A DNA stretch of 37,783 nt from a virus (Duplodnaviria; Caudoviricetes). This document shows, in pieces, positions 6,707 through 34,413 of the stretch. The stretch is from IMG/VR virus record IMGVR_UViG_3300048851_000198, positions 1 to 37,783 of that record. The stretch is one strand, 5' to 3'. Made by a program: the position numbers and the translations under genes. The notes beneath the pieces were generated by a model. The model searched no databases and had not been told where the DNA came from. It was given only the letters and a program-made list of their open reading frames with translations. The stretch's first letter is position 1; every line of letters begins with the position of its first letter.

Positions 6707-7063
6707 TTATACGGTTATCATAAACTCAGCGCTTCTCCACCAGGAGTAATGGTTCGGTCCTGATGTTTTCTGGATTAAACCATCACCACTTTTCAAGTTG
6801 AGTTGCAAGATGAAATTTGTCTTTTTCTTGAAAGCGGGTAGCTTTGTTACATTCAATGTCGCTTCGTAATCATCATAAACGGACAAAGAACATGCTCGAC
6901 ACTCATCAACAGGATAGATTTTATCGGGATTTATCTTGCGGTGAGAATGTAGATCAGAGTCAGTTGCCGGATCAGATGCAGCTATTCTAAATACTGTATA
7001 GCCGTCAGTATCCACAGCTTCCTTTGGAGGACATTGATCTGGAAGCGGCTCGAACCAATTCAT
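6707..7063 (-). CDS. Small protein with possible ADP-ribosyltransferase/RES-like fold
   Basis: LPDQCPP...VFR...CSLSVY...HYSWW spacing resembles the ART R / S-x-S core. Confidence 0.5.
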   Translation of the reverse strand: MNWFEPLPDQCPPKEAVDTDGYTVFRIAASDPATDSDLHSHRKINPDKIYPVDECRACSLSVYDDYEATLNVTKLPAFKKKTNFILQLNLKSGDGLIQKTSGPNHYSWWRSAEFMITV

Positions 7064-7145
7064 TTAGTTATAATTCTCGTTTAAGGTTAATAAGGTCGCA
7101 ATAATAATCATTTAATACGATCAATTTCTCACCGCAAAAAGAATG

Positions 7146-7173
7146 TTGACATGCCATATCTGTCGTGCATAAT
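7146..7173 (+). promoter_or_regulatory. Sigma70-type promoter for the replication operon
   Basis: TTGACA-N16-CATAAT. Confidence 0.7.
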
Positions 7174-7180
7174 ACAATCA

Positions 7181-7240
7181 CGTAGGGCTTAGTTCGGAGT
7201 TGCTCCCGAATGACAGCCCCCTTGACCGGGTTGCCCTACG
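7181..7240 (+). ncRNA. C4-like cloverleaf antisense RNA, copy 1
   Basis: P1 CGTAGGGC/GCCCTACG; P2 TTCGG..CCGAA; P3 loop CCTTGACC complementary to GGTCAAG at 7261 and 7272. Confidence 0.75.
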
Positions 7241-7284
7241 TTCTCATTATGAGTTTAATCGGTCAAGAGTTGGTCAAGGTAAAA

Positions 7285-8109
7285 ATGGATTGGTTCCCGT
7301 GGTATCCCGAGCGGTACAAGAATAAGACGCTTCACCTTACGGCAGAACAGGATGGCATATATCGCCGCCTGATAGATCATTACATGGAAACGCGACTACC
7401 GCTTCCTGACAATGACTTTGCCCTTGCACGTATAGCGGGTGTGGATAATGCCTGCTTCAAGCAAGCTTCAAGCATCCTTAGAGCATTTTTCAAGCAGTCT
7501 GAAACTGGGATTTTGAACCATATTACCTGCGATGAGCTACTGGACGAGCAGGACCAGCTTGCCAAGTTCAGGACAGAACGCGCTCGCAAAGGCGCTGAGG
7601 CTAGGCACAAAAAGACTAATGAAATCAATAAAAACTCTGCTTCGAGCAAACAAGAAGCATTGCTTAAACCTGCTACAATAACAGTTAACAATAACAATAA
7701 CAAAATATCTAAAGATATAGATGCGCCTTTGGGCATAGCCGAAAACGTTTGGCAGGATTTTATTATCCACCGAAAAGCAAAAAAGGCCCCCCTTACGAAA
7801 ACAGTGGTCGATATCCTTTTACGGGAAGCGGCTAAGGCATCCATTACGCCAGCGGAAGCATTAGAATATACACTGATGCGCGGCTGGCAAAACTTTAACG
7901 CAACTTGGTTTGCAGAAGGAAAAAGAAATGTTAACAACAACGACCAATCAAAACTTACAGGACACGCAGCTTTGGGGGAAATCAACCGAAGAGCACTTGA
8001 ACGCGTTGAGCAAGATAGATTATCGGGGAAAGCTGCCCGCACTGCCCTCGACGATTACGACTTTGGAGAAACAGTGCCTCAAATATCTGGGGACGACCCT
8101 TTCCGCTAA
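7285..8109 (+). CDS. DUF1376/YdaU-family replication initiator (start reassigned to 7285)
   Basis: MDWFPWYPERY...TLHLTAEQDGIYRRLIDHY; C-terminal WQDFIIHRKAKKAPLT...RGWQNF. Confidence 0.85.
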   Translation: MDWFPWYPERYKNKTLHLTAEQDGIYRRLIDHYMETRLPLPDNDFALARIAGVDNACFKQASSILRAFFKQSETGILNHITCDELLDEQDQLAKFRTERARKGAEARHKKTNEINKNSASSKQEALLKPATITVNNNNNKISKDIDAPLGIAENVWQDFIIHRKAKKAPLTKTVVDILLREAAKASITPAEALEYTLMRGWQNFNATWFAEGKRNVNNNDQSKLTGHAALGEINRRALERVEQDRLSGKAARTALDDYDFGETVPQISGDDPFR

Positions 8110-8674
8110 TCACGTAAAAATAACGTTTCCTGAATGCGCTGCATTAGTTTCAAGACTTTTGGCCCACTTTTGGGAAAGCAAAATGGACGGCCAGATGATA
8201 GCCAACATTCAGGGGGACTGGTACAGGGTTTTACAGGATCATTCATTGAAAACAATTGATGCCGTGGTTTTAGAATGGCTTTCCATTGGTAAACGTAAGC
8301 CCACGCCAGCGGATATTTTGGAACTGTGCAACGAAACAGACAGTACGCCAAGCCAGCTTAATAGGTTCCGTAAAATGTATGACCTGCCTGTTAAAGAGCC
8401 GGTACAGGTTAGCCCCGAAGAAAAAGAACCACCTATGCTGGGCTGTCCTATTCGATTGGCAACCTTGATGAGGCAAGCTGAAAAGTACGGACAATCGTTT
8501 GGCGAAGGTTATCAGACCAAGTATTTAAGGGATGGCATCGAGCCACGATGGGCCACGGTTGACCAAGCTAAAATAAGGACTGATATGCCCAGTAGAGAAG
8601 AATTACTGGCCCACATGCCGCCTGAGGCGCGTGTTGCCGCTATAAAGCATGAGAGCGATTGGAAAAGAGATTAA
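7928..8674 (+). CDS. Putative helicase loader/inhibitor-like replication protein (start uncertain)
   Basis: Follows the initiator; DW..VLQD...WL....RKPTPADI motif. Confidence 0.55.
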   Translation: MLTTTTNQNLQDTQLWGKSTEEHLNALSKIDYRGKLPALPSTITTLEKQCLKYLGTTLSANHVKITFPECAALVSRLLAHFWESKMDGQMIANIQGDWYRVLQDHSLKTIDAVVLEWLSIGKRKPTPADILELCNETDSTPSQLNRFRKMYDLPVKEPVQVSPEEKEPPMLGCPIRLATLMRQAEKYGQSFGEGYQTKYLRDGIEPRWATVDQAKIRTDMPSREELLAHMPPEARVAAIKHESDWKRD

Positions 8675-8736
8675 AGCCAAGGAATACGAATACATCGACA
8701 CTTACGAAAACCAACAGATTAACCGAGGAGAGTAAA

Positions 8737-10781: not shown

Positions 10782-11258
10782 CTATTTCATACTAAATATC
10801 TTATCAGCCCTGCCTATAAACTCTTTTTCCAGTGTTTTACGTTGTGGAATGTCTTTAGTCGTAACCACTCCGGCGTAGATAATATCCGTATCAAGATCAA
10901 ACTCGACCTCATCCAACTGATAACCCGCTACTGTAAACCATTTCCTGAACAGCGCCTGTCTAGATTTGCCGCGTTTATCCTGTGAATCGCACACATAAAG
11001 CATCACCCTGGAATTGTCCTGAAAGAACTCCTCGGCAATAGTTCCGATAGTAGGAGCCACACGCGGATCAGGTTTACTATCACCTGTACGGCTGAATCCG
11101 AAATAATGGAATGTCATACCGGAAAGCTTTGGAGAGACGTTCTGGACGATAGTTGAAGTAACATCATCGAAGCCATAGGTATAGATCACCCCATGGTCAG
11201 TCTCGAAGAAACTTTGATTATTGAGGGACTTTAACGGATACGGGTTTTGCATTAGCAA
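10782..11258 (-). CDS. DUF6169-like protein (Bacteroidota-type)
   Basis: DPRVAPTI..I.EEFF...VMLYVCDSQDKRGKSRQALFRKWF. Confidence 0.7.
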   Translation of the reverse strand: MLMQNPYPLKSLNNQSFFETDHGVIYTYGFDDVTSTIVQNVSPKLSGMTFHYFGFSRTGDSKPDPRVAPTIGTIAEEFFQDNSRVMLYVCDSQDKRGKSRQALFRKWFTVAGYQLDEVEFDLDTDIIYAGVVTTKDIPQRKTLEKEFIGRADKIFSMK

Positions 11259-11370
11259 TCGCCTTTCCCGATTCCTTCAAGGATTTGGTAAACCGCTCAC
11301 GCTCTTTCAGGAACTGATCGAACACGGGCCGCGCCTCTTTTTTAATTGGTATGATCTTGACTTCGTTCAT
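11218..11370 (-). CDS. Small protein (50 aa) upstream of the DUF6169-like gene
   Basis: ATG 11370 lies 5 nt after a perfect TATATTTG box. Confidence 0.6.
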   Translation of the reverse strand: MNEVKIIPIKKEARPVFDQFLKERERFTKSLKESGKAIANAKPVSVKVPQ

Positions 11371-11375
11371 AATAT

Positions 11376-11406
11376 CAAATATAACTGTTATCAGGACAAA
11401 ATACAA
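11376..11406 (-). promoter_or_regulatory. Bacteroidota-type primary-sigma promoter
   Basis: TTG(11406-11404)-N20-TATATTTG(11383-11376). Confidence 0.75.
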
Positions 11407-11646: not shown

Positions 11647-11882
11647 TGGACGAAGCATTGCAGACCTTTAAGATGCACTTTCCCGACTGGTGGTTTACCG
11701 TTGGAACCTGTAAGCTAAGCCGTCATGCAAGCTGTGGCCCAGACATTAGCGGAGCAGATGCGCACCTTTTGGAGGATAAGAGATTTCAAGAGGGCTTTCA
11801 CTGTGACCACGATGGAACTATGGCCGAAGCACTTTTAGACGTTATGAACCAAGGATTGAAGGCAAAATATGACAGACATTAA
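11643..11882 (+). CDS. Phage hypothetical protein
   Basis: ATGA overlap; PDWWFTVGTCKLSRHASCGPD. Confidence 0.65.
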   Translation: MMDEALQTFKMHFPDWWFTVGTCKLSRHASCGPDISGADAHLLEDKRFQEGFHCDHDGTMAEALLDVMNQGLKAKYDRH

Positions 11883-12111
11883 GAACACAGACGCACGACT
11901 AATCCAGTATATCGAGCGTATTGAGCGGCTTCGTGAGGAGCGCAAAGGGATTTCATCTGATATTAATGACGTGTATCAGGAAGTTAAATCCGCTGGTTAC
12001 GAGCCATCAATCGTAAAAGACCTCATCCGTGTACGGGCAATGGACGCAGAGAAGCGCACCGCCCAGCTAGAATTGTTTGACACATACCTCGTCGCTGTAG
12101 GTATGGCATAG
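11869..12111 (+). CDS. gapR: GapR (DUF2312/UPF0335) nucleoid-associated protein
   Basis: RLIQYIERIERLREERKGISSDINDVYQEVKSAGYE..IVKDLIRVR.MD...E.FDTY..AVGM. Confidence 0.93.
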   Translation: MTDIKNTDARLIQYIERIERLREERKGISSDINDVYQEVKSAGYEPSIVKDLIRVRAMDAEKRTAQLELFDTYLVAVGMA

Positions 12112-12183: not shown

Positions 12184-12327
12184 TTATTTCTTCTTGTTTG
12201 GCGCTTGCGAAAGCACCGATCCGGCTAACTTCTTAGAAGTGGTGGAAGAACGACCATCTCTAAGCACTTTTGACGCGAGGGTTGCAATCTTATTGCTACT
12301 CTGCCCGCTATTACTTGATTTTTTCAT
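12184..12327 (-). CDS. 47-aa basic protein MKKSSNSGQSSNKIATLASKVLRDGRSSTTSKKLAGSVLSQAPNKKK, not in the ORF track
   Basis: Hand-translated open frame; ASKVLRDGR.S...K..AGS.LSQ is a recurrent small-protein motif; TAAATTTA box 4 nt before ATG. Confidence 0.75.
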   Translation of the reverse strand: MKKSSNSGQSSNKIATLASKVLRDGRSSTTSKKLAGSVLSQAPNKKK

Positions 12328-12532
12328 ATGTTAAATTTACTAAAGATATTAGACACTTTATTGGGGCTGTTGAAAAGTAAAGGTCAATGTTGACAATTCG
12401 TGGTGAATATGTTGATTTTGAGCGTATTGTCTGGTAAATGTTAATGTATGTGCTACTAAAAAAGGTAGTAAAGAGGTATGATACGTGCTTATCCAGCTTT
12501 ATGCATAATAATCTATTTTAGAATGGCGATTA

Positions 12533-12817
12533 ATGGCTAAAGGCAAGAAAACAGGAGGAAGACAGAAGGGGTCGAAGAACTTTGTTAACGTTGATGTTCG
12601 ATACCTTGCCCAGACGTATGCTGAAAAGGCTCTACAAACCTTGTACGATCTTATGACCTCATCGAAGCAGGACGTTGTAAGAAAAGCCGCCGCTACCGAA
12701 ATACTAGACAGAGCGTATGGGAAACCATCACCCATGGAAGCGCCCAAAGATACGGAAGCAGCAACACCTGTAAACGTCACTGTTGAAGTCGTGGACGCTC
12801 GGAAGCCAGATGCCTAA
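12533..12817 (+). CDS. Probable terminase small subunit
   Basis: KGKKTGGRQKGSKN...AATEILDRAYGKP; overlaps the terL start. Confidence 0.7.
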   Translation: MAKGKKTGGRQKGSKNFVNVDVRYLAQTYAEKALQTLYDLMTSSKQDVVRKAAATEILDRAYGKPSPMEAPKDTEAATPVNVTVEVVDARKPDA

Positions 12818-14081
12818 GCTTAATGTTCCCCAGGCAAGGTTTTTAGAATTACCGCATAAGTTTAAAGCTTTTGTCGCGGGCTTCGGATCGGGCAAAACCT
12901 GGGTTGGATGTGCTGGATTATGCCGCCATTCATGGGAGTTTCCCTATATCAATGCCGGATACTTTGCACCGACCTATGGACAGATACGGGATATTTTTTA
13001 TCCGACCATTGATGAAGTGGCTTCGGATTGGGGGCTTACGACAAAGATACACCTGAGCAATAAAGAGGTTGATCTTTACTGCAACGGCCTATACCGGACG
13101 ACAATCCTGTGTCGATCCATGGAAAAGCCCAGTGATATCGTGGGTTTTAAAATCGGTAAGGGGCTGATCGACGAGCTTGACGTGATGAAAACGGACAAGG
13201 CTGAAATCGCATGGCGGAAGATCATTGCCCGTATGCGCTACAACGAGCCAGGTCTTGTAAATGGGATTGATGTCACAACCACTCCAGAGGGTTTCAAATT
13301 CGTTTATCTGACATTCGTAAAGAACTTACGGGATAACCCCGAATTGCAGGCGATGTATGGAATGGTACAGGCCAGCACATACGATAACGAGATCAATCTA
13401 CCCGAAAGCTATATCCCATCGCTCTTAGCGTCTTACCCGCCTCAGCTTATCGACGCATATTTAAGAGGGCAGTTTGTCAACCTTGCCAGCGGCAGCGTGT
13501 ATCCAAATTTTGATAGGCGCCTTAACCATACAAATGAACGCCTGATTAATCGTGAGCCATTGCACATTGGAATGGACTTTAACGTTATGAACATGACAGC
13601 GATACTGAATGTAATCAGGGATGGATTTCCATTAGTGGTTGGGGAATTAACAGGGGTCAGAGATACACCCACCATGACAAGAATGCTCACTGAACGATAC
13701 GGCCAGCATTCCGTTACGATCTACCCAGATGCCAGTGGTCAGGCTCATAAGTCGGTAAACGCCAGTGAAAGCGATCTTTCAATCCTTCGTCAGAACAAGT
13801 TCAGCGTTCGGGTTGATAAAACCAATCCAGCCGTGAAAGACCGTGTGAACTCCATGAATGCCATGATCCTGAATGCGAATGGAGAAAGACGCCTCAAGAT
13901 TAATACTGATGCCTGCCCGAAGATGACCGAGGCGCTTGAACAGCAGGCCTATGACAAGAATGGTGAGCCGGATAAACTGAACGGTTTGGACCATTGCAAT
14001 GATGCTGAAGGTTATTTCATATCCCAACGCTACCCAATCCGAAGCCGTGGCGTTCAGAAATTCCAGTTACAAGGCGTTTAA
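12810..14081 (+). CDS. terL: Terminase large subunit (start 12810)
   Basis: Walker A AGFGSGKT, Walker B LIDELD, TTTPEG, nuclease GMDFN..YPDASG..DH..DA. Confidence 0.95.
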   Translation: MPKLNVPQARFLELPHKFKAFVAGFGSGKTWVGCAGLCRHSWEFPYINAGYFAPTYGQIRDIFYPTIDEVASDWGLTTKIHLSNKEVDLYCNGLYRTTILCRSMEKPSDIVGFKIGKGLIDELDVMKTDKAEIAWRKIIARMRYNEPGLVNGIDVTTTPEGFKFVYLTFVKNLRDNPELQAMYGMVQASTYDNEINLPESYIPSLLASYPPQLIDAYLRGQFVNLASGSVYPNFDRRLNHTNERLINREPLHIGMDFNVMNMTAILNVIRDGFPLVVGELTGVRDTPTMTRMLTERYGQHSVTIYPDASGQAHKSVNASESDLSILRQNKFSVRVDKTNPAVKDRVNSMNAMILNANGERRLKINTDACPKMTEALEQQAYDKNGEPDKLNGLDHCNDAEGYFISQRYPIRSRGVQKFQLQGV

Positions 14082-14113
14082 ACTTGTGCTACACTACCCA
14101 AAAGAGGTAATAC

Positions 14114-15499
14114 ATGGCCGATCCTGATAGCCTACACGAGCAGTATGTTGAGTTCCTTCCCGTATGGCAGAAGTGCCGTGATGCTCGTGAAGGGCAGAGA
14201 GCTATCCGTAAAGGCGGGGTCAAATACCTTCCATCCCTAATTGGGCAGGAAACCGCCGAATACAACAAATATCGGGACCGCGCAAACTTCTTTAATGCTA
14301 CTGGAAGGACCGTTGAGGCCATGTCCGGTCTGGTATTCCGTAAGCCGATGACGTGGGAGGTTCCAGCCGCAGTCGAGCCGTGGCTTGAAGATATTACACT
14401 GTCTGGTGAAACCCTCACTGACTTTGCCGAGACATGTGTAGTAGAAACAATCACCGTTGCCCGTGACGCCATCCTGGTTGATATGCCCAGAGTAGCTAAT
14501 GATTTAACAAGGGCACAGGCAGAAGCACAACAGATCAGACCCTATCTATCGCTCTATAAGACGGAGAGCATCCTTAACTGGGAGATGGGGCGCGTTAATA
14601 ATGTTTACCAGTATGTCAATGTATGGCTGGCCGAGACATATAAAAACCAAAAGGGAGAGATTGCCGAGCAGATCAGGCAGCTTCGCCTTGATGGGATATA
14701 TTTTCAGGATATTTGGCAGAAAGCCGATAACGGGGAATGGTTCGTATCGGAAACTATCGTCCCTGTAAAGAACGGCGCTAACATCACGGAAATACCATTT
14801 TACCCCATCTCACCACGCAAGACAACGCTTGAGGTTACGGCACCACCTATTGAATCGCTGGCAGACGTAAACATTGCTCATTACCAGAATAGCGCAGACC
14901 TTGAGAACGGCGCTCATATCGCTGGGCAGCCAACTCCTTACGCCACAGGTTTGCAGGACGACGAATCAGGCCCGATATATATAGGCAGTTCGACATTCCT
15001 AACGTTCTCCAATGAGAATACCAAAGTCGGCTTCCTGCAATGCGGATCAGAGGGTTTTGCCACGCTCGAAAAGCTGATGGACCGCAAGGAACAGCAAATG
15101 GCCGCGCTTGGTGCCAGAATGCTTGCACCTGAGAAGAAAGACGCCGAAGCAGCCCAGACACATGAGATTAAACGCGGTGGTGAAAGCAGCATCCTGTCAT
15201 CGACCTGTGGAGTGATTGAGCGTCAGATTGAAAAGGCATTACGTTTTGCAGCAGAGTGGCAGGGCATCACAGGTGAAATATCCGTGGAGCTTAACCGTGA
15301 TTTCTTCCCGCCGAGCTTCACAGGGTCAGACCTTACCGCATGGGTAGCAGCACGTCAGGCAGGAGAGATTTCCAAAGAAACGCTGTTCAATGTTCTTAAG
15401 TACAGCGAATGGCTACCGGATGAACGGACGTTCGAGGAAGAACAGGACGCTATCGCAGCAGATGGGCCAACTTTAGGCGAACTGACAGACAAACCTTAG
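14114..15499 (+). CDS. Portal protein (DUF4055 type)
   Basis: Follows terL; KYLP...Y..Y..RA.F.N.TGRT; PP...LA..NIAHYQNSAD; SD GAGG. Confidence 0.9.
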   Translation: MADPDSLHEQYVEFLPVWQKCRDAREGQRAIRKGGVKYLPSLIGQETAEYNKYRDRANFFNATGRTVEAMSGLVFRKPMTWEVPAAVEPWLEDITLSGETLTDFAETCVVETITVARDAILVDMPRVANDLTRAQAEAQQIRPYLSLYKTESILNWEMGRVNNVYQYVNVWLAETYKNQKGEIAEQIRQLRLDGIYFQDIWQKADNGEWFVSETIVPVKNGANITEIPFYPISPRKTTLEVTAPPIESLADVNIAHYQNSADLENGAHIAGQPTPYATGLQDDESGPIYIGSSTFLTFSNENTKVGFLQCGSEGFATLEKLMDRKEQQMAALGARMLAPEKKDAEAAQTHEIKRGGESSILSSTCGVIERQIEKALRFAAEWQGITGEISVELNRDFFPPSFTGSDLTAWVAARQAGEISKETLFNVLKYSEWLPDERTFEEEQDAIAADGPTLGELTDKP

Positions 15500-15507
15500 C
15501 CATTGAC

Positions 15508-16401: not shown

Positions 16402-16421
16402 ACTTCAAAAATACATTTTTC

Positions 16422-16449
16422 TTGACTAAAAATTTCGAGGGTTCATACT
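16422..16449 (+). promoter_or_regulatory. Sigma70-type promoter
   Basis: TTGACT-N16-CATACT. Confidence 0.6.
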
Positions 16450-16500
16450 GGTCTTGTCCCGTAGACCTATGGCTAAGCTAATAAGGGAAAGGGGTACGTA

Positions 16501-16686
16501 GTGTGGGAATGTTATAAAATACCATTCGAGAACAGCGCACTAGCGGCCAGAGCCGCTGCAAATATGCGCCGCCCAAAGAGCAAGAAGCTTAAATTACGTG
16601 CTTATAGATGTCCGATGTGTGGCAAGTTTCATATCACGTCACAGGAGCAGGACCCGAAACGGGCGAAGAAGCTAAAGCAGAAATAG
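16501..16686 (+). CDS. Small Zn-finger phage protein
   Basis: C.K..F...A....RAYRCPMCGKFHITS; SD AGGGG. Confidence 0.7.
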   Translation: MWECYKIPFENSALAARAAANMRRPKSKKLKLRAYRCPMCGKFHITSQEQDPKRAKKLKQK

Positions 16687-24651: not shown

Positions 24652-27600
24652 TTTAGGTATTAGCGTTGGTTTTATACCAGATGATAGCGGTGCCAGAGTA
24701 ATCAAGCGCTCCCTTGATGATATGAACTCGGCAGGCAGAAACGCCTCTAATGAAAACAAACGCCTCGAACAACAGATAAGATCAACTACAAACGCTGCTC
24801 ATAGCTTGGGTAATGCGTTTAAGACGATGTTCGCCGCTTATGGTGTTAGAGAAATTATAAACATGGCTGATCAATATACGGTCATGGAATCCCGTATCCG
24901 TAGCATTGTCAAAACAACGCAGGAAACCACACGCGTTACGGCTGAATTGCGCAAAATATCTGCCGCAACAGGCAGCGAGATGGAAACCAGTCTTTCCATT
25001 ATGCAACGGCTGTCTTTTGTGCGCGAAGAGATTAAGGCTACAAATAATGATATGCTGGCGTTTACCGAGACCGTCACTAAATTGGGCGTAACCTCTGGTG
25101 CCTTGCCAGAAGCAATGAAAGCGGGTCTTACCCAGTTAGGACAGGCGCTATCCAGCCAGTACACACGAGCCGAAGAATTTAACTCCATTATGGAGAACAT
25201 TCCAGCCGTAGGTAAGGCGATTGCCGATGAGTTGAATGTTACCACAGGACAAATGCGCCTGCTTGTTGTAGAGGGAAAGCTTCTTTCAAGTGACGTGTTC
25301 GCTGCTATTTTAAACCAGACCGAAAAGGTGCGCCTTGAATTTGAGGAATTTCCTAAAACGGCTTCACAGGGTGCGAAACAGTTAGCCAACAGTTTCCAGC
25401 TTATTATTGCCCAGGCAAATGCGGCCACAGGTGCGACTAACGGAATAGGCATGGCCCTGCGTGGAGTGGGTGAGGGAGCAAAAGCTATTTATGACGGCCT
25501 GGGAACCGTGTTTGATTTCCTTGTAGCGGGAATTCAGGAAGGCGTAAACCTGATTTCCAAAGCTATAAACAAACTTATTGAGGGAATTAATCTCGCAAAG
25601 CAGATCGTACCTTTTGCAGATAAAACGCCGATTGGCTTGATTAATACCGTAGACGCCGGAAGTATTTTATTAGCCGCAAATGCAGGTAGAAAAGAGCGTG
25701 AGAAAGCGTTGTTCGGTGACGACTTCGCCTCGGCAATTACGCCTGATCAAAGGAAAATATCTCAGGACTACGCGAAGATTGCAGCCGGACTAAATGTGGA
25801 CAAAGAAGCTAAGAAAGCCGCCGATAAAGCAGCGCGTGAAGCACTACAGGAACAAAAGCGCCTTGAGAATGAACTGGAAAGTGCCATAAATGGATCACGA
25901 ACGGCACAGGAAAAGCTTAACGATGAGATTAAACATCTTGAGAGCTTAAAGGGCGTTGCCAAAACTGACGAACAGGTTGAATTGCTTAATCGCGGTATTC
26001 GTAACACGCAGGCAGAGATCGACAAGCTTGCCTTGAAAGCCGAACTGGATAGCCCACTTGCGAAAGGATTTGCTGCGATTGCTGATGAAGTGCAGGACGG
26101 CTTCAAGGATGCTTTCAAAGGTGCGTTCGATGGTGGAGGAAGCCTGTTCAAGAAGTTTGCAGACGGTATCAAGGCGACGTTCAAAAGCCTGTTACTTGAC
26201 CTTGCATATCAGGCGGCGGTAAGGCCGATTGTCGTGTCAGTATTAGGTGGGATCGGTGGTGCGGCTGGTATTTCCTCTAGTGCATTAGCCAGCGTTCTTG
26301 GCACTACAGGGTCGGGAACATCAGGCGGAGGTATCGGTTCATTATTTAGCACGGGATCAAGTTTGCTTTCTGCCGGTAAAGCTTTTTTATCGGGTGGCAG
26401 TATTACGAATGGCCTAGCTGGACTAGGTGTCAAAGCAAGTAATTTCCTTGGCGGTAGTTTCGGAACAAGCACTAATGTCGGAAACTTTATTTCCAATGCG
26501 GGAACGTTCGGAAATATCGCGGGCGGCTTTGCTGGGGGACTAGGGGCTAATCTTTTAGGCCTTGGCAATAAGAACGGGTATGTTAATGCCGCCACAGGAA
26601 CAATAGGTGGATTAATAGGCTCCATCGGTGGCCCTTTAGGTTCGGCTGCGGGATCGTTTATCGGTACAGCACTCGGTGGTTTATTCGGAGGCAAAGCGCC
26701 ATCAAACAAAGAACAGGCTGGTGTAATCAATCTTGCAAATATGGGTCGAGTAATAGGCGGTCAGACTGGTAAGAAATATTCAGCTGAAAACGCGAATTAC
26801 GTTGACGCTATCCTTGACAACATTCAAACGGTTTTAAAGGCCGTACAAGGCGCGGGCGGTAAAGCGAAGGGTTCCATTGAAGTCGCTGTCGGGAACCGAG
26901 ATGGACTTAAATTCAACGGAAAAAACTACGGGTATAATCAGTCGGCTTTCAACGAAGCTATCCTGAAAACACTCACCAAAAGTATTAGCGGCCTGGATAG
27001 CACCTTTACCACAATATTGAAAAAGGTTGGCGTGGCTAACGGGGGCAATCTTGCTTCCGCCTTTGAGTTCGGTCAGCAGTATAATGACACGTTAAATCCA
27101 ATGACCCCCGCTAAGATGTTAGCAGATTCGATTAAATTACTAGACGACAACATGTCGAACCTTGTTAAGACCGCCACAGCATTGGGTCTTCCAACAGAAG
27201 AATACACTAAAGCCCTGCAAAAACAAAGGGACGTAGCGGTTGGCGCGATGAAAGCGCAGACAGCCGGATTTGCCTCACTTGAGGAAATGACGAGAACATT
27301 CGACAGCTTCTTTAACAGTCAGGCGCTAGGTGAAAACTCGAGCCTTAACCCTACTGAAAAGCTCGGCGTTGCACAAAACAGCTTTGGCGATCTCCTAAAA
27401 AAGGCGCAGGGCGGTGATTTAACGGTAACGCAGGATCTTCTTTCTTCTGCAAACACGCTTTTAGGTGTAGGGCGTGATGTATATGCGTCAGGGGCCAACT
27501 TCTCTGGTCTGGAGAGCTTTGTTAAATCGTCTGTATCAGGCGTGGCAAATCAGGCTGGATACACAGGTCAGAACGTGTCCTATAGCATCGTCAGTACAAA

Positions 27601-27697
27601 CCAGATCGTTTCCAATAACATCGTTGAGATGAATGCAAAGATCACGGCCTTAACAGCGGAAATATTCCGTTTATCTAACAAGCTGGCGGCAGCATGA
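24644..27697 (+). CDS. Tape measure protein
   Basis: 1017 aa; tape_meas domain (QLGQAL....AEEFNSIMEN.P); Gly/Ala-rich middle. Confidence 0.95.
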   Translation: MVDLGISVGFIPDDSGARVIKRSLDDMNSAGRNASNENKRLEQQIRSTTNAAHSLGNAFKTMFAAYGVREIINMADQYTVMESRIRSIVKTTQETTRVTAELRKISAATGSEMETSLSIMQRLSFVREEIKATNNDMLAFTETVTKLGVTSGALPEAMKAGLTQLGQALSSQYTRAEEFNSIMENIPAVGKAIADELNVTTGQMRLLVVEGKLLSSDVFAAILNQTEKVRLEFEEFPKTASQGAKQLANSFQLIIAQANAATGATNGIGMALRGVGEGAKAIYDGLGTVFDFLVAGIQEGVNLISKAINKLIEGINLAKQIVPFADKTPIGLINTVDAGSILLAANAGRKEREKALFGDDFASAITPDQRKISQDYAKIAAGLNVDKEAKKAADKAAREALQEQKRLENELESAINGSRTAQEKLNDEIKHLESLKGVAKTDEQVELLNRGIRNTQAEIDKLALKAELDSPLAKGFAAIADEVQDGFKDAFKGAFDGGGSLFKKFADGIKATFKSLLLDLAYQAAVRPIVVSVLGGIGGAAGISSSALASVLGTTGSGTSGGGIGSLFSTGSSLLSAGKAFLSGGSITNGLAGLGVKASNFLGGSFGTSTNVGNFISNAGTFGNIAGGFAGGLGANLLGLGNKNGYVNAATGTIGGLIGSIGGPLGSAAGSFIGTALGGLFGGKAPSNKEQAGVINLANMGRVIGGQTGKKYSAENANYVDAILDNIQTVLKAVQGAGGKAKGSIEVAVGNRDGLKFNGKNYGYNQSAFNEAILKTLTKSISGLDSTFTTILKKVGVANGGNLASAFEFGQQYNDTLNPMTPAKMLADSIKLLDDNMSNLVKTATALGLPTEEYTKALQKQRDVAVGAMKAQTAGFASLEEMTRTFDSFFNSQALGENSSLNPTEKLGVAQNSFGDLLKKAQGGDLTVTQDLLSSANTLLGVGRDVYASGANFSGLESFVKSSVSGVANQAGYTGQNVSYSIVSTNQIVSNNIVEMNAKITALTAEIFRLSNKLAAA

Positions 27698-29352
27698 CCT
27701 TTGCAGTTGGATTTTACGCGCTAGGAGACTTTGATACCCGCATTTACGTTGGTACGCATGATCCGTTTGCAGCCCTCGCAAATACGCCTGATATCCAGTT
27801 GCAGTATCTTGTAGAGCTTTATCCATTCAGTGAGACACGCACAGGGAAACTTGTTACCGCGGCTATCTTTCCAGGCGTTTTGGCGTTGGGGGATTATGTT
27901 CTGCCTTATTCTGGCGGTGAAGTGAAGGAGCGGCTTTCAGATAAAGGCTTTATCTCCAAACCAACCGATAGCGATCCAAACCGTATCTTCCTTGGACGCG
28001 TAAATAACCCCTTGCAGTTTGACAGCAACATCCTTTCGGGTGACGGTTTTAGCGGCGGAAGCCAGTCTTTCGGTGGCATTGAGATTGTAAATGCCGATGG
28101 CGAATTTGACAGGTTTTATGATTATCACTGGTCAGGTCGCAGGGTAGTAGTGAAAGCGGGATCAGATGACTTTGAATATGACGACTTTGCAGCAATTCTT
28201 GACGGGTCTATTGATAACATTGAGGGCGATGACGCAAGGCTTGTTCTTACGATAAGAGACAATCGGTCAAAGGTTGAAAAGCCGATCCGATCTGGTGTTT
28301 ACGGCGGGTCAGGTCTCAAGGATGGTATGATCGAGATTAAAGGACAGCAAAAGCCGCTATGTTTTGGGGTGGTCAGAAACGCGCCTCCAGTGCTTATTGA
28401 TTATGCTACACAGCTTTACCAGATACATGACGGTGCTATAGCTTCAGTTGAAAACGTTTATGATCGTGGGATCACGCTTGACTACGCAGGAGATGTCGCA
28501 GACATTACAACGGCAACCCCTGGAGCCAGCCAGTACGCTACGCAATTATCAGGCGGATATATAAAGCTTGGCTCAACTCCAGCAGGGCAGGTGACGTGTG
28601 ATTTACACGGTGAAGGTTCGAGTTCCAGCGCCGATCTCGCCTTACGCATCCTGAAAACCAAAATGGGGGTTTATTCGCTTTCGTCCAGTGACATAGACGA
28701 AGGATCATTTGCCCGTCTTACACTTATTTTGACTGGCGATGCAGGGATTTTCATTGATGCTGAAATGACTGGCGCAGATGTTCTTGACCTTCTGTTCAAT
28801 AACTCGGCGGCTTACTGGAGCTTTACCCGTCAAGGCATGTTATTCGCTGGGGCAGTTTTATCACCTGGAGGCGCAACAGCCGATGTTCAGAACATTGACA
28901 TTGCAGGGCTGAAAGCACAGCAGACAATTACCCCGACATGGCGCATCAAAGTCGGATATTCCCCTTCCACAGCTGTTCAGAGTGTTGACGATCTGGCAGG
29001 CGGCGCAACAGCCGATGTTCAGAACTTCGTGACAGAAGAATACCGTTACCTGACCTATGAAAACGAAACGGTAAGGTTAAAAAACAACGTAGCGTCCGAG
29101 AGGGTCTTTAATACAAATCTCGCAGATGAAGCGGATGCACAGGTTTTACTTGACCGTCTGGCGGCAATCTACAGCGTCAAAAGGATGGTGTTTCAGGTAA
29201 CGGTTTATAAAACCCTCTATCGCTATTTTATCGGGGATATGGTACGGTTAAAATATGATCGGTATGGACTGGAAAACGGCAGGAACTTTATGATTGTCGG
29301 TGTGTCCGATAACGCCGCTACGGGTCAAACCGTCTTTAGTTTGTGGGGATAA
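27694..29352 (+). CDS. Tail tip/baseplate hub protein
   Basis: After the tape measure; KPLCFG.VRN.PPVLID...YQ.HDG...VYDRG; ends in LWG. Confidence 0.75.
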   Translation: MTFAVGFYALGDFDTRIYVGTHDPFAALANTPDIQLQYLVELYPFSETRTGKLVTAAIFPGVLALGDYVLPYSGGEVKERLSDKGFISKPTDSDPNRIFLGRVNNPLQFDSNILSGDGFSGGSQSFGGIEIVNADGEFDRFYDYHWSGRRVVVKAGSDDFEYDDFAAILDGSIDNIEGDDARLVLTIRDNRSKVEKPIRSGVYGGSGLKDGMIEIKGQQKPLCFGVVRNAPPVLIDYATQLYQIHDGAIASVENVYDRGITLDYAGDVADITTATPGASQYATQLSGGYIKLGSTPAGQVTCDLHGEGSSSSADLALRILKTKMGVYSLSSSDIDEGSFARLTLILTGDAGIFIDAEMTGADVLDLLFNNSAAYWSFTRQGMLFAGAVLSPGGATADVQNIDIAGLKAQQTITPTWRIKVGYSPSTAVQSVDDLAGGATADVQNFVTEEYRYLTYENETVRLKNNVASERVFNTNLADEADAQVLLDRLAAIYSVKRMVFQVTVYKTLYRYFIGDMVRLKYDRYGLENGRNFMIVGVSDNAATGQTVFSLWG

Positions 29353-29353
29353 A

Positions 29354-30118
29354 ATGGAACGCATGCTATTAGCCACAGGCACCCTATCGGACGCAGCAAT
29401 CATCACTGGCCCCACAGGCGCGGGTGATCTCACAATTGATAATCTAAAAAGACAATCCTTGCAGGAACCGTATAGAATAATCGGTAATTCCGCTGTTATT
29501 GACATTGATCTATTAAACGCAGTACCTGTAAACGTAATTGCCTTAATAGGTCATAACGGATCGGCGGGCGGAACGGTTCAAGTAACGGCCTCAAACACAT
29601 TCGGAGGTTACGCTTATAATAGCGGTGTTCTGCCGTTTGTAACGGGGCCGAAGCAGTTTGATAAAAGTTTGTTTTTCTTGTTTACAGACCAGACATTCCG
29701 ATACTGGCGTATTACAATCACAGACAATCAGGATTATATCGAAATCGGTCGCCTTTACATCTCAAATGCTTTCCAGCCCTCATATAACATGATTTGGGGA
29801 TTTCAGCAGGGCTTTACCGATGCTTCGCAGGAATATGAGACAATAAGCGGTGATAGCATTTCGCTAAAACGTAAGAAAAAGCGGTTCGCTGAATTATCAT
29901 TGGAAGATTTAAGCGAGGATGAGGTCTTTGCGGAATTATATCCGTTAGACAAAATGATCGGCACAAGTGGAGACGTATTATTCATTCCAAAACCAGATGA
30001 AATTACACACTTACAATTCAATGCAATTTATGGCAAAATAGAAGCATTGCAGCCGAATGCGTTGACGGCTTACAACAGATTTAGCCGACAGTTCCGAATT
30101 AAGGAGTTACTGCCATGA
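29354..30118 (+). CDS. Tail protein (distal/galactose-binding-like; start 29354)
   Basis: ALIGHN...RYWRITI.D...YIEIGRL....FQP.YN. Confidence 0.7.
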   Translation: MERMLLATGTLSDAAIITGPTGAGDLTIDNLKRQSLQEPYRIIGNSAVIDIDLLNAVPVNVIALIGHNGSAGGTVQVTASNTFGGYAYNSGVLPFVTGPKQFDKSLFFLFTDQTFRYWRITITDNQDYIEIGRLYISNAFQPSYNMIWGFQQGFTDASQEYETISGDSISLKRKKKRFAELSLEDLSEDEVFAELYPLDKMIGTSGDVLFIPKPDEITHLQFNAIYGKIEALQPNALTAYNRFSRQFRIKELLP

Positions 30119-31242
30119 CGATTAAAGTATTAGACAGGGCTTTCGAGACAACTACAACTACCGGAACGGGAGTAATCACGCTTGCGGGTGCGCAACAGGG
30201 TTTTGTATCTTTTGCCACGGCTGGTAACGGCGCAAAAGTGCTTTATCAGATTAATGATGGTGATACCACGGGGCTTGTTCAAAACTGGGAAATCGGTATA
30301 GGAACGGTAACAACAGGCACACCAAATACCCTTACGCGTTCAACCGTTTTAAAATCAAGCAATAATAACTCACCTGTAAACTTTGGTTCAGGTGTCAAAA
30401 ATATCATTGGTTCTATAGCTGGACTAACCTTAGCTACACGCGATGAAAACCTGAATTTTGTTGAGGGATTTGGAATTGGGGGTGGTACGGCAAATGCTCA
30501 CACTGTTACCGTGCCAGTTACGCCATTGGGTTATTCCGACGGGATGGAGATTAATTATTTCGCAACAGTAGCTAATACTGGAGCAATGACCATAAACGTG
30601 AATGGCCTGGGCGTTAAATCGGCGAAGCTAAGCGGTGCAGACGTTCCCGCTGGATATATCGGTGTTGGGTCACTTGTTTCTGGACGGTATCGCACGTCCT
30701 CAGGCTTTATCGAGTTAAGCGGTGGAGCTACCATTGGTCAGGGCGCAAAGGCAGATAGTGCAATACAACCAGCGACGGGCCAGATACTGCGACGGGTAGT
30801 GATAGAGGATGCAACGGTTGCTGGCGCTGGAACGGCTATGGCAATTAGCTCCGCCCCCTCAAATACCGCTGGAGATTTACTTATTACATTGAACGTTCCT
30901 GCTAGAACACGGGCTGGTAGCAAAATGTATCTAGAGATGTCCATGTTTTGTGGCAATGCCGTCACAGGTGCGGCAGGTGTTGGGGCGGTAGTCGCGTTTT
31001 TTTTAAACTCGACAGCAACGGCTTTTGCCATGGCAGTAGAGTATAACAGCTTCACCAACGGATCAGGGTCAGTTTATCTGATTAAAAAAATGGAAGTTCC
31101 AATTGTGAGTGATACCGGAAACACCGTTCCTGTAAGGGTTGGCAGAAATGGCGGTGCATCATGGTATATAAATCGGACATTTTCTGATGCGGTTATCTTT
31201 GGTGCCAAAACAGTATTCACATTTACGGAGGTGGCGGCATGA
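30115..31242 (+). CDS. Tail fibre/receptor-binding protein
   Basis: DRAFETTTTTGTG.ITL.GA..GF..F...WEIGIGT N-terminus; GGTANA...NTGA.TINVNGLG module; beta-rich C-terminus. Confidence 0.75.
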   Translation: MTIKVLDRAFETTTTTGTGVITLAGAQQGFVSFATAGNGAKVLYQINDGDTTGLVQNWEIGIGTVTTGTPNTLTRSTVLKSSNNNSPVNFGSGVKNIIGSIAGLTLATRDENLNFVEGFGIGGGTANAHTVTVPVTPLGYSDGMEINYFATVANTGAMTINVNGLGVKSAKLSGADVPAGYIGVGSLVSGRYRTSSGFIELSGGATIGQGAKADSAIQPATGQILRRVVIEDATVAGAGTAMAISSAPSNTAGDLLITLNVPARTRAGSKMYLEMSMFCGNAVTGAAGVGAVVAFFLNSTATAFAMAVEYNSFTNGSGSVYLIKKMEVPIVSDTGNTVPVRVGRNGGASWYINRTFSDAVIFGAKTVFTFTEVAA

Positions 31243-31517
31243 GGTGGTTTGCTGACATGACGGGTCAATTCATTCTTGGCTCGGAAGATAATATGCCAGA
31301 AGGTGACGAAGGTATTGACTGGCAGGAGACAACGGTTCCGCTTGGTGGTGATGTTTTGTGGGATGGCATCCAGTGGGTCGAATTACCCCAACAGGAAACA
31401 CCAGAACCGACGCCTATTAACGTAATCCCCTATATCGGCACCAACACGACCATGAAGAAAAAGAAATGGGAAATCGTGATGACCGATAATGGCGTGGGAT
31501 TCAGGGAGAAGCCATGA
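31239..31517 (+). CDS. Small tail-associated protein (fibre chaperone-like)
   Basis: ATGA overlaps; WDG.QW motif. Confidence 0.55.
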   Translation: MRWFADMTGQFILGSEDNMPEGDEGIDWQETTVPLGGDVLWDGIQWVELPQQETPEPTPINVIPYIGTNTTMKKKKWEIVMTDNGVGFREKP

Positions 31518-32062
31518 CAGCTAAACTAGAGGCCACAACGGAAAAGAACACAAACGACATCCAGGCGCTTGCCTTACAGGTAACCCGTGTCGTAACTATT
31601 GTTGAGAACTCAGAAAAGCGCCACGAAGGTGACGTAAATATGTGGCGTGAGGCCATAGCGGGAATAAGCAAACTAAATGAGAGTGTATCGAAAACGCTCT
31701 TACTGGAGAAAGACGTTGCAGCAGCAAAAGAGACGATGGCAGAATTAAAAAGCGACATTCGGGTGGTACGTCATGATGTAGGCAACCTTCAAAATGCACA
31801 GAATGCAATCCCCATACATCAGGCGGCAATTGCGAAACTTGAGGCAAAGATAATTGCTCTGGAAGTCATACGGGATAAGATTTCAGGCGGTGCTATGGCC
31901 CTTGGATTTGGGAGTAAGGTTCTCTGGACTGTGTTTGGTGGTGCCATCATTGCTTTAGGCGGCTACCTGATTGATACCTATATGGACCGAAACGTTACGA
32001 CTATATCCGCACCTTCACAAATTGAGATAACTGCTCCGGTGGAAAATGACAACCCGCAATAG
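31514..32062 (+). CDS. Coiled-coil membrane protein, holin/antiholin candidate
   Basis: One C-proximal TM segment; directly upstream of the endolysin. Confidence 0.5.
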   Translation: MTAKLEATTEKNTNDIQALALQVTRVVTIVENSEKRHEGDVNMWREAIAGISKLNESVSKTLLLEKDVAAAKETMAELKSDIRVVRHDVGNLQNAQNAIPIHQAAIAKLEAKIIALEVIRDKISGGAMALGFGSKVLWTVFGGAIIALGGYLIDTYMDRNVTTISAPSQIEITAPVENDNPQ

Positions 32063-32567
32063 CTTTTCGACTACTAGCAAGGTCGCTGGAGGATTAATCG
32101 GCGCGGCAATGCTTATAGCCGTTCCCTTCATTGTGGAGAAAGAGGGCGAGAGCCTTAAGGCTTATCGTGATGTGGCTGGCGTATGGACTATATGCCATGG
32201 CGAAACGCTTGGCGTGAAAAAGGGTGACGTAAAGACCAAAGAAGCCTGCCGACAAATGACCCAGACGAGAACGGGACAGTTTATGGCTAACGTTGCAAAG
32301 GAAATCAAAGTGACCGTATCACCGGAAACCCTCGCGGCGCATACAAGCTTTGCGTATAATATCGGGGTAAACGGCTATCGCACATCACAGGCGCTTAAGC
32401 TCACAAATCAGAATAAAGTACGGTCCGGTTGCGCTGCAATGATGAACTGGTATACCGCGGGCGGAAAAGACTGTCGCGTTAAAGCAAATAATTGCTATGG
32501 TCTGATCACGCGCCGTATGTCAGAGCGTGATCTGTGTTTGAAAGGCTTGTCAAATGGGGGCTTATAA
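32046..32567 (+). CDS. GH24 lysozyme, SAR endolysin
   Basis: N-terminal Gly/Ala-rich SAR segment; E-x8-D-x5-T triad EGESLKAYRDVAGVWT; SFAYNIG; GLITRR..E. Confidence 0.93.
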   Translation: MTTRNSFSTTSKVAGGLIGAAMLIAVPFIVEKEGESLKAYRDVAGVWTICHGETLGVKKGDVKTKEACRQMTQTRTGQFMANVAKEIKVTVSPETLAAHTSFAYNIGVNGYRTSQALKLTNQNKVRSGCAAMMNWYTAGGKDCRVKANNCYGLITRRMSERDLCLKGLSNGGL

Positions 32568-32784
32568 ATGGGATGCAATATTTATTGGTGTTGTCGTAGC
32601 CGTGCTGGGCGCGTTTGGGTTCGGGTATGGCTGGGCTAATAAAAGCTGTGAGATCGAGAAGAAGGATGATAAGATCAAGGTAATTGAAAAGGTCATAACC
32701 ATTAGGGAAAAGCAGAATGAGATACGCAATAATCGTCCTAATGCCTCTGGTGTTGCTAAACGCTTGCGCGCGGGAACGTTTTGA
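32554..32784 (+). CDS. i-spanin (Rz-like)
   Basis: N-terminal TM plus short periplasmic helix after the endolysin. Confidence 0.65.
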   Translation: MGAYKWDAIFIGVVVAVLGAFGFGYGWANKSCEIEKKDDKIKVIEKVITIREKQNEIRNNRPNASGVAKRLRAGTF

Positions 32785-32932
32785 TTACCTGACGGTGGAC
32801 GTTGTTAATTACGACCAAAAGACTATGGACAAAGCGGCCACTGAAATTGAAGGTGGGTCATGCCCTGTCCTAAGTGACGTTTTTATGCCTGACTACAGCG
32901 TTATGCGAGACCAGGCCAGAGCCGCGAAGTGA
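32717..32932 (+). CDS. o-spanin lipoprotein (Rz1-like)
   Basis: Signal peptide with lipobox LNAC; overlaps the i-spanin in another frame. Confidence 0.7.
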   Translation: MRYAIIVLMPLVLLNACARERFDYLTVDVVNYDQKTMDKAATEIEGGSCPVLSDVFMPDYSVMRDQARAAK

Positions 32933-33213
32933 AATACATACCCAGTAAGATATTCTTTGCCGAGCCGCGCTGGAAAGCCTTGCGACAACGTGCGCTGCAA
33001 TACTGGGGCAGAAAGTGCATGAAGGGCGGTAACTGTGCCGGACCTATTCAGGTGGACCATGTTTTGAGCCGTAGTACCCGTCCAGATTTGCAGTGGTCGT
33101 TTAATAATCTCCAGCCGCTATGCTACCGACATAATCATGAAAAGGGACGCAAGGGCAAGCGGGATTACAGGCCGTTACTTAAACGCTGGAAATTCCGATT
33201 GCTTGGATATTAG
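32929..33213 (+). CDS. HNH endonuclease
   Basis: W..LR......C...IQVDHV...P.L....NNLQPLC..HN..KG. Confidence 0.88.
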   Translation: MKYIPSKIFFAEPRWKALRQRALQYWGRKCMKGGNCAGPIQVDHVLSRSTRPDLQWSFNNLQPLCYRHNHEKGRKGKRDYRPLLKRWKFRLLGY

Positions 33214-33269
33214 TTTTTAGTTTGAATCCTAGAAATCAATTACTTAACTTTAATGTAATCATAAAGGCC

Positions 33270-33668
33270 ATGAGTTATAACAGTAATTTCGAAAGAGGAA
33301 AAGACGGTCGGTCTAAAGTTCGTAATGTAAATGATGGAGTTGGAGGGCTTACATCGGACCTTGGTTATATAGCTGGACAGCAAGCTCGGGAGAGGGAACA
33401 ACGGCAAAGACAACAGGAAAGTGATACCAGACGGGACTGGGAAGAAACAGCCTTCCGTAGCAACCTTGAACATGAAAGATATATGGCGGGAGCTGGATAT
33501 ATCAAGAAGTGGGGTAAATGGTATGATCCGGTAACTGGTGAGCTAGTCTTTAAAAAGCCAGTAGTTGCACCACTTCCGGAACCCCTTAATACTATTATAA
33601 ATATCTTTTTAGGTATCCTGCTTATAGGTATTTTAATTGCCTTAGGCTTATTCATAGCTGCGAATTAG
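33270..33668 (+). CDS. Membrane-anchored cargo protein (start reassigned to 33270)
   Basis: C-terminal TM; TTTG(33221)-N20-TAACTTTA(33245) upstream. Confidence 0.65.
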   Translation: MSYNSNFERGKDGRSKVRNVNDGVGGLTSDLGYIAGQQAREREQRQRQQESDTRRDWEETAFRSNLEHERYMAGAGYIKKWGKWYDPVTGELVFKKPVVAPLPEPLNTIINIFLGILLIGILIALGLFIAAN

Positions 33669-33682
33669 GTTTCTACATGTCC

Positions 33683-34180
33683 TTACTTAGGCGGTGGAAG
33701 CTTGGCCTTTAGCTGCTGTTGTAATTTATTTATAGTTGCCTGGTGTTCTTTTACCTGCTGCTTAAGCTCGATGTTTTGAAGGTCCGAACTGTATTTTCCC
33801 CATGCAAAACAAATCGGGCCTATAATAGCAAGAACGCCAAGAAGTAGCGTGACTAATGAACTATTGTCAAGACGCATGAGAAAGTTTGTTTTGGGTTCTT
33901 TGTAAAGAGGCCTGGTCTTTAGCAGTTCAATGCAACCATCAAGAAACTGGGACACCTCAATAGTGTTCTTCTTAATTTGATTTTCTTCATCCCACTTATC
34001 TGCAAAAAGCAAGTCACTAAAGTCAAATCCCCTTATATATTTAAACTGTTCCGACTCGGCTCCAAAATAGTCCTTGATAAGGCTTTTGGTTATTGAAATC
34101 CAAGCATCATTGCGATTATTTTTGTTTGCGAGTTTATCTTTTTGTTCTATTAGTGAGGCGATCGCGCGTTTAGAAGTCAT
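33683..34180 (-). CDS. Membrane/coiled-coil cargo protein (start reassigned to 34180)
   Basis: Helical N-domain, TM LVTLLLGVLAIIGPICFAWG, coiled-coil tail; TTG-N20-TATCTTTA-ggc-ATG. Confidence 0.7.
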   Translation of the reverse strand: MTSKRAIASLIEQKDKLANKNNRNDAWISITKSLIKDYFGAESEQFKYIRGFDFSDLLFADKWDEENQIKKNTIEVSQFLDGCIELLKTRPLYKEPKTNFLMRLDNSSLVTLLLGVLAIIGPICFAWGKYSSDLQNIELKQQVKEHQATINKLQQQLKAKLPPPK

Positions 34181-34323
34181 GCCTAAAGATAAGGATTTTG
34201 CTCTGCGCCGCCAAGGCGACAAAGGGGGTTTTCGGTGGAGTGCGGTTGCGGGTCTGTCTGTCACAACAGGATATTTGAACATATATTTTTTAGTTGGGTA
34301 GGCCTAATCTATATTTGGGTATC

Positions 34324-34413
34324 ATGATTTCAATGCAGACGATTGTAGACGTGTCAACGATAGTTGGAGCGCTTGCAGGTTTGCTTTCTCTTTATCAGAA
34401 CAGGAGAAAGTAG
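34324..34413 (+). CDS. 29-aa hydrophobic peptide MISMQTIVDVSTIVGALAGLLSLYQNRRK, not in the ORF track
   Basis: Perfect TATATTTG at 34310-34317, 6 nt before ATG; terminator downstream. Confidence 0.55.
   Translation: MISMQTIVDVSTIVGALAGLLSLYQNRRK

Follow-up and report, generated by a model that had tools for sequence, protein, structure and literature searches.

Results and discussion

One element with two sets of expression signals

We analysed a stretch of 37,783 nucleotides (positions 1-37,783 of the IMG/VR record IMGVR_UViG_3300048851_000198, Caudoviricetes), called the window below, which by its gene content is a siphovirus provirus with 70 open reading frames (ORFs). It belongs to a family of elements in which one unit of 39-48 kb joins two gene sets with different expression signals. 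The first set is of a Bacteroidota type: its integrase, excisionase, coupling protein, primase and cargo genes have no Shine-Dalgarno (SD) sequence, and many of the cargo genes carry -7 promoter boxes. The second is of an alphaproteobacterial type: the replication, virion and lysis genes, DUF2958 and most ArdC genes come with SD sequences, sigma70 sites, GapR and a depletion of GANTC. The explanation that we favour, by a modest degree, is a two-host element. It would be silent in Bacteroidota, though with expression of the boxed cargo, and would enter a lytic cycle once transferred to an alphaproteobacterium.

We use "core" for the phage genes, "cargo" for genes classed by orientation, SD absence and protein family, and "chassis" for the mobilisable part common to the family. 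SD sequences precede 47 of the 62 core starts in the window but only 1 of 11 cargo or chassis starts. Across the seven chassis elements measured, the median for core SD signals ranges from -5.5 to -6.1 kcal/mol; Hymenobacter flank genes are near 0 (SD in 2 of 23). All four DUF2958 copies in the elements have an SD. Strict sigma70 sites number five in the window against a null mean of 1.33 (at most 3 in 30 null sets), and 34 against about 11 expected over nine elements, whereas Bacteroidota loci gave 21 against 22. The observed/expected ratio of GANTC is 0.23 in the window core and 0.77 in its cargo, 0.11-0.49 in the relatives, 0.87-1.02 in Hymenobacteraceae flanks and 0.52 in a Micavibrio flank. 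GANTC depletion is an alphaproteobacterial trait (PMC3973325), and E. coli genes are unexpressed in Bacteroidetes (PMC6847099). No -7 boxes stand ahead of the core operons. In the Hymenobacteraceae copies the core promoters and ribosome sites mismatch the lysogen, unlike those of a conventional temperate (lambdoid) prophage. DUF2958 with an SD was also seen in two Bacteroidota islands that have no phage genes within 6 kb (L100:6807 and L119:10375), which hints that the chassis itself visits SD-using hosts.

Promoter boxes close to the cargo starts

The original prediction held that eight cargo cassettes share a Bacteroidota -7 box, mostly 3-6 nt before the ATG. All eight quoted upstream sequences are present in the window, and at six of them (11370, 12327, 16401, 17280, 34180 and 34324) a box TAnnTTT[G/A] does stand 3-6 nt before the ATG. 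The other two are different: the box of 33270 lies 17 nt away, an ordinary leader, and 7063 is boxless, its TATTATTG breaking the near-invariant T-8. Near-leaderless Bacteroidota-type promoter-plus-ORF units are hence the best reading at five or six sites, not eight. What had been overlooked is that the core is built for the machinery of another phylum, and the motif takes its meaning from this.

The -7 box of Flavobacterium johnsoniae reads TAHHTTTG and lies 4-5 nt from the start site; leaders there are longer than 10 nt in 87% of cases (PMC6847099). A 4-nt gap between box and ATG would therefore place the transcription start on the AUG. The six gaps in the window are 3, 3, 4, 4, 5 and 6 nt, so that two are shorter than in F. 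johnsoniae; the final near-invariant G is present in three boxes (11370, 16401 and 34324) and replaced by A in three. SD signals are weak at all six starts. The ATG of 17280 is backed by 15 homologs that begin together, and those of 34180 and 16401 by hidden Markov model matches from residue 1-2; 34324 opens 29 codons only, a weak point of the motif.

Near-start boxes head 5 of 7 cargo units against 0 of 62 core starts (Fisher P=2e-6; 5 of these 62 are mis-set and not on a start codon), and no box was found within 18 nt upstream among the 62, in agreement with the earlier remark that the motif was not noticed there. Nor is this chance: shuffling each of the eight upstream 40-mers gave 0.09 boxes expected at gaps of 3-6 nt, and no single round of the 20,000 had more than 2. 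A Markov null over the whole window, which takes no account of ORFs, gives a weak result (7 observed, mean 3.4, P=0.04). The TTG reported 20 nt upstream at three sites is real. However TTG, 20 nt and TA is also the geometry of sigma70 (hexamer, 17 bp, hexamer), so these sites do not discriminate the sigma type. A -33 TTG accompanies 3 of 7 boxes, and 4 of the 6 near-start boxes lack any -35.

The motif itself is already known. Transcripts with no leader or a very short one account for 5.5% in F. psychrophilum (PMC9723704) and 3.7% in Bacteroides thetaiotaomicron (PMC7366714). We collected 123 box-bearing ORFs from 78 Bacteroidota mobile loci, and their gaps peak at 4 nt, with 16 at gaps of 3-6; in 36 genomes the gap-4 pattern has 2606 matches against 1327 for gap 10. 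A box 4 nt before the ATG is thus an ordinary leaderless signature of Bacteroidota, a minority arrangement found phylum-wide. The boxes in the window are probably Bacteroidota promoters. The short leaders are enriched in the window, with 5 of 6 boxed cargo genes against the 16 of 123 (P=4e-4).

We rejected a near-leaderless design conserved across the family, since the relatives mostly have normal leaders. Their cargo genes have the box mostly 18-44 nt upstream, with SD-less leaders. A strict box at gaps of 3-7 nt was found on real cargo once in G008 and once, doubtfully, in G010, and on no cargo of G006, G007, G009, G410 or G928; G891 has one at gap 8. Other DUF6169 cassettes show the box 11-27 nt upstream in 8 of 15 and never at 3-6 (16 loci were fetched and L374, which has stops, was excluded; five further loci are outside this upstream count).

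A mobilisable chassis common to the family

The window begins with an HTH_17 excisionase-like gene of Bacteroidota integrative elements (1..270, +, PF12728), the best 80 genome matches of which are almost all labelled Bacteroidota (61-72%). It is followed by a chassis gene without SD that ends in KDKDHER (270..920, +); the same kind of gene stands 3' of the excisionase in the relatives. Two of the 80 excisionase loci, those of Hymenobacter fodinae and H. telluris, run on into the early phage genes known from the window. When whole regions were retrieved, eight relatives were obtained: G006, G007, G891 and G928 in Hymenobacteraceae, and the proviruses G008, G009, G010 and G410. L389 is probably a ninth. 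G010 has a tail tube protein with the same sequence as one named for Dyadobacter jiangsuensis.

The common chassis consists of a Bacteroidota tyrosine integrase and excisionase, a VirD4-type coupling protein, a MobA/VirD2 relaxase, a primase and ArdC, with DUF2958 in four. The relaxase and coupling protein, for which the best plasmid matches are in Alphaproteobacteria, occur without any mating-pair genes found in G006, G007, G009, G010, G891 and G928. The records of the window, G008 and G410 end before the mobilisation genes; G009 is without an integrase, and G010 without integrase and excisionase. A 48-bp tRNA-Met repeat flanks 46.2 kb in G006 and 47.6 kb in G891, indicating site-specific integration in Hymenobacteraceae; no clear attachment (att) repeat was found in G007 or G928.

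The phage part varies. The siphovirus tails fall into three lineages in a tree, and in G007 this chassis is joined to a P22-like podovirus module. The chassis without a phage is common among the excisionase loci, and the siphovirus-bearing form is rare: 3 of 274 Hymenobacteraceae, and 0 of 400 and 0 of 401 in wider Bacteroidota samples. One of the wider samples was centred on G005, which falls in one class with Bacteroidota genomes although it is labelled otherwise, so that this sample carries no information on Alphaproteobacteria.

Several further observations concern these loci. G007 (L168-L170) also has an MT-A70 methyltransferase and a tRNA-Trp call within the element, and G006, the H. fodinae element, has at L164:2486-5690 a type I-like methylase/specificity pair in place of the replication gene region. 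A podovirus-like contig (L390:9902-11305) has an SD-bearing coupling-protein gene beside DNA polymerase-like genes. L089 and L155 are labelled Bosea and Janthinobacterium, yet they group with Bacteroidota in genome searches.

An intact phage with no CI-type repressor found

The virion, packaging and lysis genes are intact and under purifying selection. The virion genes of the chassis elements have zero internal stops, and their nonsynonymous rate (dN) is well below the synonymous one (dS), which is mostly >1. The SD, sigma70 and GANTC traits have therefore been kept through heavy sequence turnover.

We found no CI-sized HTH_3 or Sigma70_r2 protein in G008, G009, G010 and G410, and no CI-sized repressor or sigma factor among the 76 ORFs of G006 and G007 or the 70 of the window. 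The helix-turn-helix (HTH) proteins in the scanned elements are all <90 aa, and no CI-type repressor stands at the early divergent promoters. The control G411 has a 228-aa CI; this chassis-free phage is an ordinary prophage with its own integrase, among genes named Micavibrio sp. Outside Bacteroidota, the named tail-tube homologs are in Micavibrio aeruginosavorus (39%) and Rhizobiales (37-41%). A 43% homolog of the distal tail protein (P0045) comes from a contig of 46,960 bp with the label Methylobacterium oryzae, a length close to that of an entire element.

A possible life cycle in two phyla

We propose the following cycle. The element would integrate in a Bacteroidota chromosome, where the chassis and cargo alone would be read, and the boxes would act as Bacteroidota housekeeping (-7) promoters giving leaderless cargo transcripts. 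The boxed genes may be carrier-side accessories, partly defence-like, added in the manner of morons behind phage promoters and acting during carriage. The core would be silent since the sigma factor of the carrier does not read its promoters; a core that requires sigma70 and SD would stay off, making a CI repressor unnecessary. The relaxase and coupling protein might then deliver the element through a borrowed conjugation channel, and on arrival in an alphaproteobacterium the core would be expressed immediately, with unrepressed lytic growth. ArdC, whose role is to counter restriction, would do so in the recipient. The entire element would be packaged and return to Bacteroidota; the match between unit size and a packageable genome suggests such whole-element packaging. 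We infer all steps from the silence onward. Among the parts, two hosts seem probable, and conjugation is a route that we somewhat favour.

A Micavibrio-like predator as the target is a tentative idea, although epibiotic predators would make attractive recipients. We speculate further, and consider it rather unlikely as a whole, that the element could be a Trojan-horse prophage: Bacteroidota would carry a repressor-less phage of Micavibrio-like epibiotic predators without lytic risk and conjugate it into an attached predator, which would lyse and release whole-element particles, the boxed leaderless cassettes being trimmed for the carrier and some for both phyla. PMC3189940 considered prey-to-Micavibrio transfer and found no support for it, and the Micavibrionaceae phage described in PMC9296519 is unrelated.

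Several points weigh against the two-host explanation. The Bacteroidota host of the window is taken from its relatives, as the window includes neither its flanks nor integrase and mobilisation genes. The host-known chassis copies are all in Bacteroidota, and none came to light in an alphaproteobacterial genome, a class outside the genomes searched. GC content tracks the carrier (53-60% in Hymenobacteraceae copies, 45-47% in the others), which fits a long residence in Bacteroidota. A loose sigma70 scan gave no excess, only the strict pattern separating the elements from the null, and ArdC has an SD in only 3 of 5 element copies (scripted start). Three of the six boxes have A as their last base, and at two the gap is 3 nt. 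The repressor and sigma factor scan covered the window and six of the eight relatives, G891 and G928 being the other two. The link to Micavibrio is distant (virion proteins at 37-51%, tree support 0.7-0.8), with the Rhizobiales prophages equally close at the 37-41% given above.

Alternative explanations

The main rival for the motif is that the boxes are sigma70 -10 hexamers (TAnnnT) or dual-read promoters, the leaderless cargo being translated SD-free in the alphaproteobacterial host or in both; we regard this as doubtful. All six boxes do contain TAnnnT 5-8 nt before the ATG, three sites fit TTGnnn-17-TAnnnT, and the 34180 region is homologous to the sigma70 promoter region of the relatives. 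Alphaproteobacteria make many leaderless mRNAs (PMC7566282), and the excess of short leaders over the Bacteroidota loci would suit such a host. However TT[G/A] after TAnnnT is retained in all six boxes, T-7 is unconserved in alphaproteobacterial promoters, and the absence of a -35 from four boxes is unexpected on this account. In the relatives the cargo combines this box with an SD-less leader of 18-44 nt, an arrangement that a sigma70/SD host would translate poorly, and the cargo is without strong GANTC depletion.

The elements could instead be dead ends, alphaproteobacterial phages repeatedly captured by a Bacteroidota mobilisable island and silent there, the selection on their virion genes predating the capture. 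The abundance of phage-free chassis and the rarity of the phage-bearing form agree with this; yet the virion genes are stop-free in all chassis elements, the phage and chassis genes are interleaved in a common order with the cargo neatly behind phage promoters, no element retains a phage integrase or CI, and the unit size fits a packageable genome. We consider it improbable.

A host jump, in which the lineage moved from Alphaproteobacteria to Bacteroidota and completes its full cycle there, seems slightly less probable again. The signals would be relics and the cassettes host-derived morons. The Bacteroidota location of every host-known chassis copy and the GC content would be as expected, and Bacteroidota ribosomes do not need an SD. 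On the other hand, synonymous sites are near saturation, yet the SD, sigma70 sites and GANTC depletion persist in every measured member. The core operons have not gained -7 boxes, the scanned elements have neither sigma factor nor repressor, and the three tail lineages and the podovirus module point to continued exchange with alphaproteobacterial phages.

An assembly chimera of proteobacterial phage and Bacteroidota DNA, which the metagenomic origin and mixed signals might suggest, has a negligible chance: a single 48,489-bp contig of run X1 (possibly the source sample) covers the whole window with zero differences and extends about 10.5 kb beyond its right end, scattered pieces at least 99% identical lie on both core and cargo bins in run X2 of a different study, and isolate genomes have the same architecture, which contradicts a chimera.

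Relation to known systems

The boxes resemble the Bacteroidota sigma-A (sigma-ABfr) -7 promoter in sequence, in the 4-5 nt spacing that would put the start at or beside the AUG and in the frequent absence of a -33 element (PMC6847099, PMC9723704, PMC7366714). They differ in that short leaders make up 3.7-13% of the transcripts there but occur at 5 of 7 cargo heads here, and half of the boxes end in A. The core is like the temperate siphophages of Alphaproteobacteria (Azospirillum phage Cd and G411) in tail module, GapR, SSB, SD, sigma70 sites and GANTC depletion; unlike them, it has no CI or phage-type integrase found and is located in Bacteroidota chromosomes.

Integrative mobilisable elements of Bacteroidota form an NBU-like family, to which the chassis is similar in its tyrosine integrase, excisionase, tRNA att site, relaxase, coupling protein, primase and the lack of mating-pair genes found, but the family described here bears a complete phage built for another phylum. 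Phage morons (for instance those of HK97/HK022) have their own promoters and a lower GC, and are often antisense, defence-like genes set between phage operons; the cassettes resemble them, but their promoters belong to a different phylum than those of the core. The conjugative prophages of streptococci and clostridia are phage DNA moved by conjugation within one phylum, and the transfer proposed here would be similar but across phyla. The mavirus virophage in Cafeteria is an integrated virus that becomes active when its enemy, a giant virus, arrives; our element would likewise act only on the arrival of an enemy or partner, but its target would be bacterial.

No description of such an element was found in a literature search that lacked most subscription papers, and we know of no counterpart to a phage/mobilisable-island hybrid that uses two phylum-specific expression codes. 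If our explanation is true, a virus life cycle is divided over two phyla and held quiet by promoter incompatibility rather than a repressor. Genes would then have a new path from one phylum to another, prey might have a new defence against predatory bacteria, and host-prediction tools would misassign this class of elements. Two isolates, Hymenobacter fodinae 92R-1 and H. telluris BT186, make the two-host reading directly testable.

The cargo cassettes

The cargo of the window is Bacteroidota-like, and its matches seem defence-like, though weak. A two-gene unit at 5564..7063 (-), SD-less and without a -7 box, resembles the PD-T4-10 A/B anti-phage pair in PADLOC. Its genes (7063+6706) are adjacent and in the correct order with a weak E of 2.5e-6 each, the B gene also matching PDC-M63B, and G010 has this pair in the same slot. 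At 10782..11383 (-), the box TATATTTG (11383-11376) is followed after 5 nt by a 50-aa partner (11370-11218) and then by DUF6169, a Bacteroidota family. DUF6169 (window 10782-11370; L161-L163, L368-L380) is nearly always 3' of an overlapping partner ORF of 48-86 aa, and the two may form a toxin-antitoxin-like layout across Bacteroidota.

The cassette at 12184..12339 (-) has the box TAAATTTA (12339-12332) 4 nt before a 47-aa basic protein (phrog_5079). In the slot 3' of the portal (15508..16413, -), the box TATTTTTG (16413-16406) is 4 nt from a 297-aa HNH protein; the same slot in G008 holds an unrelated ORF with its own TAAATTTG-4nt-ATG. A 197-aa membrane protein at 16687..17291 (-) starts 3 nt after TATATTTA (17291-17284). 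The box TAACTTTA with the ordinary 17-nt leader precedes the 132-aa ORF of 33270 (33245..33668, +). A 165-aa PDC-S35-like protein (33683..34191, -) starts 3 nt after TATCTTTA (34191-34184), a box that occupies the position of the DUF2958 SD in the relatives. The last one, at 34310..34413 (+), has TATATTTG 6 nt before the 29-aa hydrophobic ORF of 34324; at this position G010 and G410 have GATATTTG-GGT-ATG ahead of a longer gene. Several cassettes stand back-to-back with sigma70 promoters (16422, 17303 and 7146), and a single one overlaps such a promoter (11357). Integron-like or att-based capture is unsupported, as no common repeat flanks the cassettes.

Other features of the window

The early phage operon (908..4807, -) has SD sequences and encodes by PHROGs a DUF968 HNH protein, NinB, a Gam-like protein, a nucleotidyltransferase, SSB and a recombinase, which are 57-85% identical to Hymenobacter prophage genes. 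A sigma70-type promoter TTGACA-16-CATAAT (7146..7173, +) lies upstream of the replication genes, and TTGACT-17-TATAAC (11357..11385, +), read from the sequence, overlaps the 11370 box head-to-head. The GapR-like nucleoid protein, alphaproteobacterial in type, is encoded at 11869..12111 (+; PF10073, E 5e-22); among 14 controls this signal was positive in Caulobacter alone. The intact siphovirus packaging, head, tail and lysis genes follow with SD sequences at 12533..32932 (+), the antisense cargo being inserted among them. Proteins of the window were also located on a 998,542-bp contig. An NCBIfam search with 16 proteins gave zero matches, and single-protein scans with cargo or capsid queries found nothing in viral, metagenome and genome collections.

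The promoter TTGACT-16-CATACT (16422..16449, +) is back-to-back with the 16401 box. TTGACT-16-GATACT is followed by a leader conserved in G009 and G410 (17303..17422, +); the leader of about 90 nt (17336-17422) is 73-74% conserved there despite differing downstream genes, and is possibly a structured RNA. At the right end (34536..37783, +), two sigma70-type promoters (34536 and 35039) occur with small phage genes that have SD sequences. The promoter regions (34522-34575 and 35025-35078) are related over 54 nt and lie 503 nt apart, and this pair possibly represents operators for the small HTH protein at 34812.

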